This document shows positions 1 to 1,072 of a stretch of DNA of 1,072 nucleotides, piece by piece. A program made the translations under genes and the position numbers. The notes under the pieces are model-generated. The model was not told where the DNA came from and did no database searches. It saw nothing but the letters and a program-made list of their open reading frames with translations. The DNA is from Naegleria gruberi (taxonomy: Eukaryota): the NCBI GenBank assembly GCA_000004985.1, contig GG739580.1. One strand, 5' to 3'. Positions within the stretch are counted from its first letter, which is position 1; each line of letters starts with the position of its first letter.

Positions 1-53
1 AACAAGTAGTTTATTTTTATATTTTTATAAAACAAGTTTAAATTCATTAAAAG
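1..53 (+). other. Possible 3' end of an intron of gene 1, with acceptor AG at 52-53. Alternatively it is low-complexity exon sequence
   Basis: This stretch has 7 G/C in 53 nt (about 13% GC), against about 28% downstream. It ends '...ttcattaaaAG|attggagatc'. The encoded peptide in the open frame (TSSLFLYFYKTSLNSLK) is low-complexity. Seventeen open codons could arise by chance in AT-rich DNA, with probability about 0.2. Confidence 0.3.
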
Positions 54-469
54 ATTGGAGATCATCATATGGTGATACATCACGTATAGTTGGTGCATAT
101 ACAGGTGCATGGTTAGGTACATGGTTATTAATTTATTTTTATAAACCTTCCTATTTAGTTTCTAAATTACTAAATTTAGATATTGAATTACCTATTTTAA
201 AAATGATTAATTTTAATGAATTTATATTTATTTTATGGACATCATTAATTGGTATTATACTTGTTTTAGCAAGTAAAGAAATTACTAAACATTTATTATT
301 TCAATTATTTAAATTATTTTATTTAAATGAAAATGATAAAAAATTAACAATGAAACAATTATTACGTTCACGTTATGATATTGAAGTACCTATCATTTTC
401 ATTTCATATACAATGATTGGTATTACAAGTGCTTTTATTGTACCTGTTTTTATAATTGGAAAATTTTAA
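2..469 (+). CDS. 5'-partial CDS for the C-terminal part of a small hydrophobic multi-pass membrane protein. The frame is open from the window edge, the first in-frame ATG is at 203, and the stop is TAA at 467-469
   Basis: I translated frame 2 by hand: TSSLFLYFYKTSLNSLKDWRSSYGDTSRIVGAYTGAWLGTWLLIYFYKPSYLVSKLLNLDIELPILKMINFNEF...VPVFIIGKF*. There is no stop for 156 codons in roughly 80% AT DNA, which I estimate has a chance probability of about 1e-7. The other two + frames hit stops within about 35 nt of position 54 (tag 87-89; tga in 'tggtga' about 73-75). Three hydrophobic stretches are TM-length: IVGAYTGAWLGTWLLIYFY, FIFILWTSLIGIILVLA and VPIIFISYTMIGITSAFIVPVFIIG. GC content rises from about 13% (1-53) to about 28% (54-469), which is exon-like. 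The ORF track confirms 203..469. The true 5' boundary is unknown: there may be an intron acceptor at 52-53, or the exon may continue upstream. Confidence 0.65.
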   Translation, partial: TSSLFLYFYKTSLNSLKDWRSSYGDTSRIVGAYTGAWLGTWLLIYFYKPSYLVSKLLNLDIELPILKMINFNEFIFILWTSLIGIILVLASKEITKHLLFQLFKLFYLNENDKKLTMKQLLRSRYDIEVPIIFISYTMIGITSAFIVPVFIIGKF

Positions 470-470
470 T

Positions 471-518
471 ATTATTAGAATTATATTATTATATTATTAG
501 AATTATATTATTATATTT
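471..518. repeat. Perfect 22-bp tandem duplication (tattattagaattatattatta x2, then a partial third unit 'tatt') two nucleotides after the gene 1 stop codon
   Basis: Positions 471-492 and 493-514 are identical when read directly. Positions 515-518 restart the unit, then the sequence diverges (tattttattt...). Confidence 0.9.
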
Positions 519-577
519 TATTTAAATACAATACATGAAGATGTGATAGTGTTGTTATTGTTGTTAAAATAAAAGTT

Positions 578-583
578 CATGAT
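578..583 (+). promoter_or_regulatory. Candidate polyadenylation signal AATAAA for gene 1
   Basis: The hexamer aataaa lies within 'gttaaaataaaagttcat', about 110 nt downstream of the TAA stop at 467-469. Such hexamers also occur by chance in 90% AT sequence. Confidence 0.35.
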
Positions 584-604
584 TTTTATTAGATTTGGAA
601 ATTG

Positions 605-614
605 TTGGCGCCAA
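605..614. promoter_or_regulatory. GC-rich perfect palindrome TTGGCGCCAA (E2F-like site, contains GGCGCC) in the gene 2 promoter region
   Basis: Positions 605-614 read ttggcgccaa, which is its own reverse complement. The minus strand of 607-616 reads TTTTGGCGCC and contains the E2F consensus TTTGGCGC (TTTSSCGC). It is the only GC-rich element in an otherwise roughly 88% AT spacer, and sits about 35 bp upstream of ATG 648. Confidence 0.3.
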
Positions 615-647
615 AATTAAAGATTTAAACGTTAAAAAAAATTGAAA

Positions 648-1072
648 ATGTTTAGAAATTCACTAACACAAGGTGGATCAACACAATGGGGTGCAACTAT
701 TGAAGATATTAATACATCTAATTTATCATTTGATTCGGATGAAGATAATGATCAACAGCAACAACAAAAACAACAACAAGTGACTAGTAATGAATCTATT
801 ATACAACAACAATCATCATCATCAATAATTAATAATAATAATAATATAACAACAATATCATCATCATCACCTATTAATAAATCTAAAAGTAATATTCATC
901 CATTATTAAGAAGTACATTAGATGATTTAGATGATATTAAACAAAATGATAATACTAATACTAATAATAACAACATGGATGATGATGATATAGAAGAAGA
1001 ATCACCTAGTAGTCCACCTGTTATTACTTCTTTTAAACAATCTAATATTAATAATATTAATATAATACTATT
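648..1072 (+). CDS. 3'-partial CDS for the N-terminal 141 codons of a low-complexity Q/N/S/D-rich protein, probably intrinsically disordered
   Basis: ATG at 648-650 sits in a Dictyostelium-style 'gaaaATG' context and is preceded by in-frame TAA at 633-635. It is therefore the first possible start. Between 636 and 647 there is no AG that could serve as an acceptor. I translated it by hand with no stop through 1070: MFRNSLTQGGSTQWGATIEDINTSNLSFDSDEDNDQQQQQKQQQVTSNESIIQQQSSSSIINNNNNITTISSSSPINKSKSNIHPLLRSTLDDLDDIKQNDNTNTNNNNMDDDDIEEESPSSPPVITSFKQSNINNINIIL.... Codon usage is caa/aat/tca/gat/ggt/cca. The ORF track omits it only because the ORF runs off the 3' edge without a stop. Confidence 0.8.
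   Translation, partial: MFRNSLTQGGSTQWGATIEDINTSNLSFDSDEDNDQQQQQKQQQVTSNESIIQQQSSSSIINNNNNITTISSSSPINKSKSNIHPLLRSTLDDLDDIKQNDNTNTNNNNMDDDDIEEESPSSPPVITSFKQSNINNINIIL
753..779 (+). repeat. Imperfect (CAA)9 codon repeat encoding QQQQQKQQQ
   Basis: caa cag caa caa caa aaa caa caa caa is in frame with ATG 648. Confidence 0.9.
804..869 (+). repeat. Block of trinucleotide tracts (caa)3-(tca)4-ata att-(aat)5-...-(tca)4 encoding QQQSSSSIINNNNNITTISSSS
   Basis: Read directly: caacaacaa 804-812, tcatcatcatca 813-824, aataataataataat 831-845, tcatcatcatca 858-869. Confidence 0.85.
951..1001 (+). repeat. (aatact)2-aat aat aac aac and (gat)4-ata-(gaa)3 tracts encoding NTNTNNNN...DDDDIEEE
   Basis: aatactaatactaataataacaac at 951-974; gatgatgatgat at 978-989; gaagaagaa at 993-1001. 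Confidence 0.85.

Follow-up and report, generated by a model that had tools for sequence, protein, structure and literature searches.

Is the single G/C-rich palindrome in the short spacer between two tandem protist genes a binding site for an E2F/DP-type transcription factor, and does it control the gene downstream of it? A sequence-only reading of this locus had proposed that it does. Here, we follow up this proposal in the window, i.e., the whole stretch of 1,072 bases that was analysed, which is 79% AT and holds two plus-strand genes that lie 178 bp apart. We consider in turn the two genes and their relatives, the palindrome itself, the likelihood that it arose by chance, and the explanations that compete with an E2F/DP-type site.

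Results

Gene 1 (positions 2 to 469, plus strand) is the 3′ end of the upstream gene; its frame, frame 2, is open from base 2 and ends in a TAA at 467 to 469. It encodes the C-terminal half of a sphingosine-1-phosphate-phosphatase-like membrane protein of the PAP2 family. A word-indexed protein search with this C-terminus gave no match, and no Pfam family was found for the fragment. Using an exhaustive HMMER search, we found three strong matches (E 4e-33 to 2e-30), namely, a JGI metagenome protein, Willaertia magna KAL9643748.1, and Naegleria lovaniensis XP_044544905.1, followed by weaker matches to distant animal sphingosine-1-phosphate phosphatase 2 (SGPP2) proteins. The only close relatives of gene 1 are, therefore, those of the heteroloboseans Willaertia and Naegleria together with one metagenome contig. 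In the alignment, the motifs WRSSYGDT, KEIT, and RYDxExP are invariant, and the C-termini coincide; the PAP2 domain of the matches is within their portion upstream of the window. Gene 1 shares 45 to 46% identity with each of the Willaertia and Naegleria proteins over ∼150 aligned residues, while these two proteins share 39.5% identity with each other, which is below the value of either to gene 1. That the TAA of gene 1 coincides with the C-termini of its homologues argues against a genetic code of the Tetrahymena or Paramecium type. Apicomplexan and anaerobic-fungus origins were considered as well; the best matches belong to neither group, and a spacer of 178 bp is too short for Plasmodium. 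Among the matches in the protein collection, N. lovaniensis was the only Naegleria species. The proteome of N. fowleri, a close relative of N. lovaniensis, is public, and a gene 1 orthologue would be expected there. Coverage or annotation of the protein collection may be patchy, and arguments from absence are tempered to that extent.

Gene 2 (positions 648 to 1072, plus strand), the presumed regulated gene, starts with an ATG at 648 to 650 in the context AAAATG, is preceded by an in-frame TAA at 633 to 635, and continues without a stop through 141 codons until the window ends. The probability that such an open frame arises by chance is ∼5e-7, and for the frames of gene 1 and gene 2 it is <1e-6 each. 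The 141 N-terminal residues of gene 2 are of low complexity and rich in Q, N, S, and D; they had no homologue in the word-indexed protein search and matched no Pfam family. We noticed two RxxL motifs and three S/T-P sites in gene 2 (648 to 1070; residues 3 to 6, 74, 88 to 96, 119, and 122), and one of the RxxL motifs, RSTLDDLDD, resembles a destruction box, while a KEN box is absent. These motifs are weak and common by chance and are no evidence for a cell-cycle protein.

The spacer between the gene 1 stop codon and the gene 2 ATG (470 to 647, plus strand) is 83.1% AT, or 85.7% AT if the palindrome is excluded, i.e., less AT-rich than the ∼88% given in the sequence-only reading. Its 178 bp have to accommodate, for gene 1, the 3′ UTR and the poly(A) region and, for gene 2, the entire promoter together with the 5′ UTR. 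There can be little distance between the two transcription units. An AATAAA at 568 to 573 on the plus strand, the only one between 441 and 661, is separated by 98 nt from the gene 1 stop codon and by 31 nt from the palindrome that follows; based on general eukaryotic 3′-end signals, gene 1 may use it as its poly(A) signal. The palindrome is, thus, located downstream of this AATAAA and upstream of the gene 2 ATG.

The spacer and its upstream border have additional features. A GT-rich tract at 539 to 566 has a GC skew of about +0.6 and a WGATAR match at 544, and the AATAAA lies thereafter. A perfect 22-bp tandem duplication at 469 to 517 (ATATTATTAGAATTATATTATT; 2.2 copies, 100% match) begins at the last base of the gene 1 stop codon and presumably belongs to the 3′ UTR; it could reflect replication slippage or represent a 3′-UTR element. 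A lone ATTGG (inverted CCAAT) is present at 455 to 459 at the end of the gene 1 coding region, ∼190 bp before the gene 2 ATG; CCAAT is enriched in RblA-repressed promoters of Dictyostelium (Table S2 in Strasser et al. 2012, PMC3386910). Finally, the window and the 3′ flank of the PAP2 gene of Willaertia have the 13-mer TTGTTGTTAAAAT in common; it does not stand out from the other 13-mers that are shared by chance, and we do not consider it further.

We examined 39.5 kb of DNA in total from loci of Willaertia, Naegleria, and the metagenome that contain a gene 1 homologue. In these three loci, tblastn revealed no homologue of gene 2 downstream of the PAP2 gene. The hexamer GGCGCC is absent from the 39.5 kb, and the E2F consensus TTTSSCGC occurs once, in 17 kb of DNA from Willaertia, where it falls within a coding region; 0.27 matches were expected there, and the single match is at chance level. 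Exact 26- to 35-mers spanning the palindrome had no match in the viral, metagenome, and genome collections, and scans of the metagenome and genome collections with the back-translated proteins gave no confirmed match. On its upstream side, the PAP2 gene is accompanied by a WD40-repeat gene in each of the three loci, namely, that of Willaertia (2801 to 4654 in L001), that of the metagenome (1390 to 2550 in L002), and that of Naegleria (5853 to 7889 in L003). The two genes are adjacent in Naegleria, separated by one gene of 569 aa in Willaertia, and separated by only short called ORFs in the metagenome contig. The WD40 and PAP2 genes form a small conserved neighbourhood, and the window ends short of that upstream region.

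Direct reading of positions 605 to 614 gives TTGGCGCCAA, which, as had been claimed, is a perfect 10-bp palindrome; it is built around the symmetric G/C core GGCGCC at 607 to 612. The minus-strand reading across it (TTTTGGCGCC / TTTTGGCGCCAA) contains the E2F consensus TTTGGCGC at 615 to 608, an exact match to TTTSSCGC and the single one found, and the T-run of this sequence is lengthened by a fourth T at 616 on the minus strand. The canonical E2F core noted previously is, accordingly, present, and the distance of ∼35 bp to the gene 2 start also holds, with 33 nt between the end of the palindrome and the ATG at 648 and with its centre ∼38 nt upstream. GGCGCC is the only run of at least four G/C in the spacer, in agreement with its description as the sole GC-rich motif there, and the only run of at least five in the whole window, in which the sole other run of four is a GGGG at 688.

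Comparison with published consensus strings extends this match. The 12-mer at 604 to 615, GTTGGCGCCAAA, agrees at 11 of the 12 positions with TTTGGCGCCAAA, the palindromic high-affinity consensus determined for human E2F1 by HT-SELEX (PMC5449588). Inside the same 12-mer, the 8-mer TGGCGCCA is identical to the E2F-like motif of Cryptosporidium (PMC3734150). The symmetric [C/G]GCGC[G/C] core of E2F/DP sites is flanked by T-rich and A-rich sequence and is contacted by residues whose conservation extends to all E2F and DP proteins (PMC3734150). Such an SGCGCS core with a T-rich and an A-rich flank is present at 604 to 615, where GGCGCC matches the core exactly.

How often would such a sequence be expected from base composition? 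Per position, and with both strands considered, TTTGGCGC has a chance of between 1e-7 and 2e-6, depending on whether spacer or window composition is used, and the whole TTTSSCGC family has one of between 6e-7 and 7e-6 over the same choice of compositions. The low chance claimed previously is supported by these values, while the figure of ∼1e-5 per position attached to it is not and was conservative. Consistently, not one of 200 dinucleotide-shuffled versions of the window contained TTTSGCGC. When the spacer was shuffled 200,000 times with the motif's own G and C retained, TTTSSCGC appeared on either strand in 43 shuffles (2.2e-4), a 10-bp palindrome with at least six G/C in 32 (1.6e-4), and any G/C run of at least six in 444 (2.2e-3); with independent bases, the expectation of TTTSSCGC in the spacer is 1e-4 to 1e-3. 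In these single-locus tests, TTTSSCGC is more common than base composition predicts, and the motif exceeds what composition gives for one spacer. Among ∼1e4 spacers genome-wide, one to a dozen chance matches are still expected. The earlier judgement that the motif is not noise is supported for the single spacer (∼2e-4) and does not carry over to the genome, in which a handful of chance matches are expected.

The sequence-only reading had also placed the locus in a social amoeba with an RblA-dependent E2F/DP module. This premise finds no support in our searches, in which neither gene has a dictyostelid match and the relatives of gene 1 are heterolobosean. Specifically, no dictyostelid protein was found for gene 1 or gene 2 in the word-indexed search or in the exhaustive and profile searches, and the gene 1 profile search likewise added none. 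The collection searched contains the actin of Dictyostelium discoideum AX4, with AX4 accessions from NCBI, UniRef, and EukProt; the AX4 proteome was, therefore, covered by the search, and the locus is not part of it. Most likely, the DNA comes from an AT-rich amoeba of heterolobosean type or from one that is otherwise unrepresented. Because membership in the D. discoideum RblA regulon would presuppose a D. discoideum locus and this DNA appears not to be from D. discoideum, the RblA data do not apply to it. The accompanying suggestion that gene 2 might be controlled by cell-type proportioning is without basis and pure speculation. In the literature, RblA is described to repress essentially all S-phase and most mitotic genes of Dictyostelium, and a "consensus E2F element" is mentioned in passing for the RblA-repressed Tdd-5 transposon (PMC3386910). 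Our literature search found no paper tying TTTGGCGC to Dictyostelium and nothing relevant on Naegleria and E2F.

Discussion

On balance, we favour the interpretation that the palindrome is a promoter-proximal E2F/DP-type site that controls the transcription of gene 2, and we hold this with modest confidence. Several lines of evidence argue for it: the exact match to TTTSSCGC, the perfect dyad with an SGCGCS core, and the extended fit to the E2F1 SELEX site; a per-spacer chance of ∼2e-4 for the consensus and ∼2e-3 for any G/C hexamer; the absence of GGCGCC from the 39.5 kb of the nearest available relatives; and the lack of support for RNA-level and non-coding-RNA readings. It is also supported by the identity to TGGCGCCA, by the reported presence of E2F, DP, and Rb families across the supergroups of eukaryotes, Excavata and Amoebozoa among them (PMC4862756; PMC4758236), and by the palindromic sites near gene starts in animals. 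The use of palindromic E2F sites in animal promoters, to which the sequence-only reading had appealed, is borne out, e.g., by the DHFR promoter element ATTTCGCGCCAAA (PMC2784457). Other observations argue against this interpretation. The site is a single instance, and no related locus carries a gene 2 homologue; the half-site on the plus strand has two T only; per ∼1e4 spacers, between one and a dozen matches would arise by chance; and the identical motif of Cryptosporidium is no predictor of cell-cycle expression.

According to the model that we favour, a winged-helix heterodimer of the E2F/DP type would bind the symmetric GGCGCC, with each subunit contacting one half. The strong half-site would be TTTTGGCGC on the minus strand, which has four T (AAAA at 613 to 616 on the plus strand), and the weaker half-site would be gTTGGCGC on the plus strand. 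Should an Rb-type pocket protein exist in this organism, it could repress transcription while on bound E2F/DP, and its release would lead to activation, thereby tying gene 2 to proliferation or the cell cycle. The model assumes that the organism has E2F/DP and that this factor binds the site. From its position, the site would be at or near the transcription start, and it may be within the 5′ UTR of gene 2. We have less confidence in the periodic, cell-cycle-linked transcription of gene 2 that had been suggested than in the E2F/DP-type site itself: in Cryptosporidium, the same motif is found upstream of genes with all expression profiles, arguing that an E2F-like site alone is not predictive of periodicity.

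One competing explanation is that the decamer is a functionless, G/C-rich product of chance in the spacer. The motif was picked after inspection of the sequence and from an unknown number of windows scanned, and a rate of 1e-7 to 7e-6 per position over ∼10 Mb of spacer would give roughly 1 to 60 TTTSSCGC matches; that such matches do arise is illustrated by the one inside the Willaertia coding region. However, neither the shuffles of this spacer nor those of the window readily reproduce the motif, and a perfect 10-bp palindrome and its location <40 bp from a start codon would be two further independent coincidences. Moreover, E2F regulons usually comprise hundreds of genes, so that real sites should outnumber chance ones; in Dictyostelium, 98 genes of S phase and mitosis are strongly regulated, plus others (PMC3386910). 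Altogether, we consider chance an unlikely source of the palindrome. Alternatively, a different and possibly lineage-specific dimeric factor could recognise GGCGCC or TTGGCGCCAA, in which case the likeness to E2F sites would be coincidental. A perfect dyad is expected for the site of any homodimeric factor, and the maintenance of a G/C hexamer in a spacer that is otherwise 86% AT argues for constraint and names no protein. Yet, we estimate that, if a G/C hexamer were kept for reasons unrelated to E2F, it would match TTTSSCGC, the correct flank included, in only ∼2% of cases, and here the fit extends to nearly the entire E2F1 SELEX site. Known candidates for such a factor also fail. For an NFI-type site, TTGGC(N5)GCCAA, the half-sites abut with a spacing of 0 instead of 5, and the CGCG core of CAMTA/CGCG-box and MBF/SBF sites is absent. 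We, therefore, regard recognition by a different factor as quite improbable.

The palindrome could also act at the RNA level or in 3′-end formation, either as part of a structured 5′ UTR of gene 2 or in the region where the gene 1 transcript is terminated and polyadenylated. The shortness of the spacer is compatible with this idea, as the 5′ UTR of gene 2 could include the site, and, given the position of the AATAAA, the 3′ end of the gene 1 transcript is probably no more than a few tens of bases away from the palindrome. However, a perfect palindrome of 10 nt cannot form a hairpin alone, and the RNA of 585 to 665 folds no better than its shuffles (z = +0.31). Searches for non-coding RNAs gave no tRNA and, up to E = 1, nothing from Rfam. 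Eukaryotic poly(A) signals are not known to feature G/C-rich dyads. For these reasons, a function in RNA structure or 3′-end formation is very unlikely. Given these alternatives, an E2F/DP-type site is the interpretation that we retain, and, as judged from its sequence and position, the palindrome probably represents a genuine promoter element of an ordinary kind.

If the site is real, then gene 2 would be a candidate target of the Rb/E2F pathway in an AT-rich protist that has been little studied, and the site would provide one data point for the conservation of the E2F recognition sequence beyond animals and plants. To our knowledge, no E2F cis-element has been described in the heterolobosean lineage (Discoba). 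At the same time, the site would add one more example of an element that is very well known, and a lone predicted E2F site in front of an uncharacterised gene is unsurprising to specialists and opens no long-standing question. The practical consequence of our analysis is a correction, i.e., that the locus should not be interpreted via the Dictyostelium RblA data. The locus resembles the Dictyostelium RblA/E2F/DP regulon (Strasser et al. 2012, PMC3386910) in its base composition and in the low-complexity, Q/N-rich style of its coding regions; however, it differs in that the relatives of gene 1 are heterolobosean and in that it is missing from the AX4 proteome.

Compared with well-studied E2F/DP sites of animals and plants, the palindrome has the same SGCGCS core, the same T-run and A-run flanks, and the same location near a gene start, and it is of the same dyad form as the DHFR element ATTTCGCGCCAAA. 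In contrast to the canonical site, one of its flanks has two T instead of three, and it is found in an AT-rich protist; in contrast to canonical E2F/DP targets, gene 2 has no recognisable cell-cycle function. The location of an E2F-like G/C element near a gene start is also reminiscent of the CDE/CHR tandem of animal G2/M promoters (DREAM/LIN54). We rejected this pair because neither a CHR (TTYGAA) nor a TTCRAA is present between 441 and 661 and, hence, none is located 4 nt downstream of the G/C element.

A close parallel is in Cryptosporidium parvum, in which TGGCGCCA is the most over-represented upstream motif, is E2F-like, and is found upstream of 2,379 genes, whose expression profiles are of every kind (PMC3734150). 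C. parvum differs in that its motif is genome-wide and statistically established, while we describe one instance here, and in that C. parvum is without Rb. What the two have in common is the identical 8-mer, an AT-rich compact genome with short spacers, and a location just upstream of a coding region. We tentatively speculate, and with considerable doubt, that the TGGCGCCA-type site may be part of a genome-wide E2F/DP promoter code in an AT-rich heterolobosean amoeba, similar to that of Cryptosporidium. If so, the E2F DNA-recognition code would extend to another deep branch of the eukaryotes, and E2F would be a general proximal-promoter factor in the compact, AT-rich genomes of protists rather than one devoted purely to the cell cycle.
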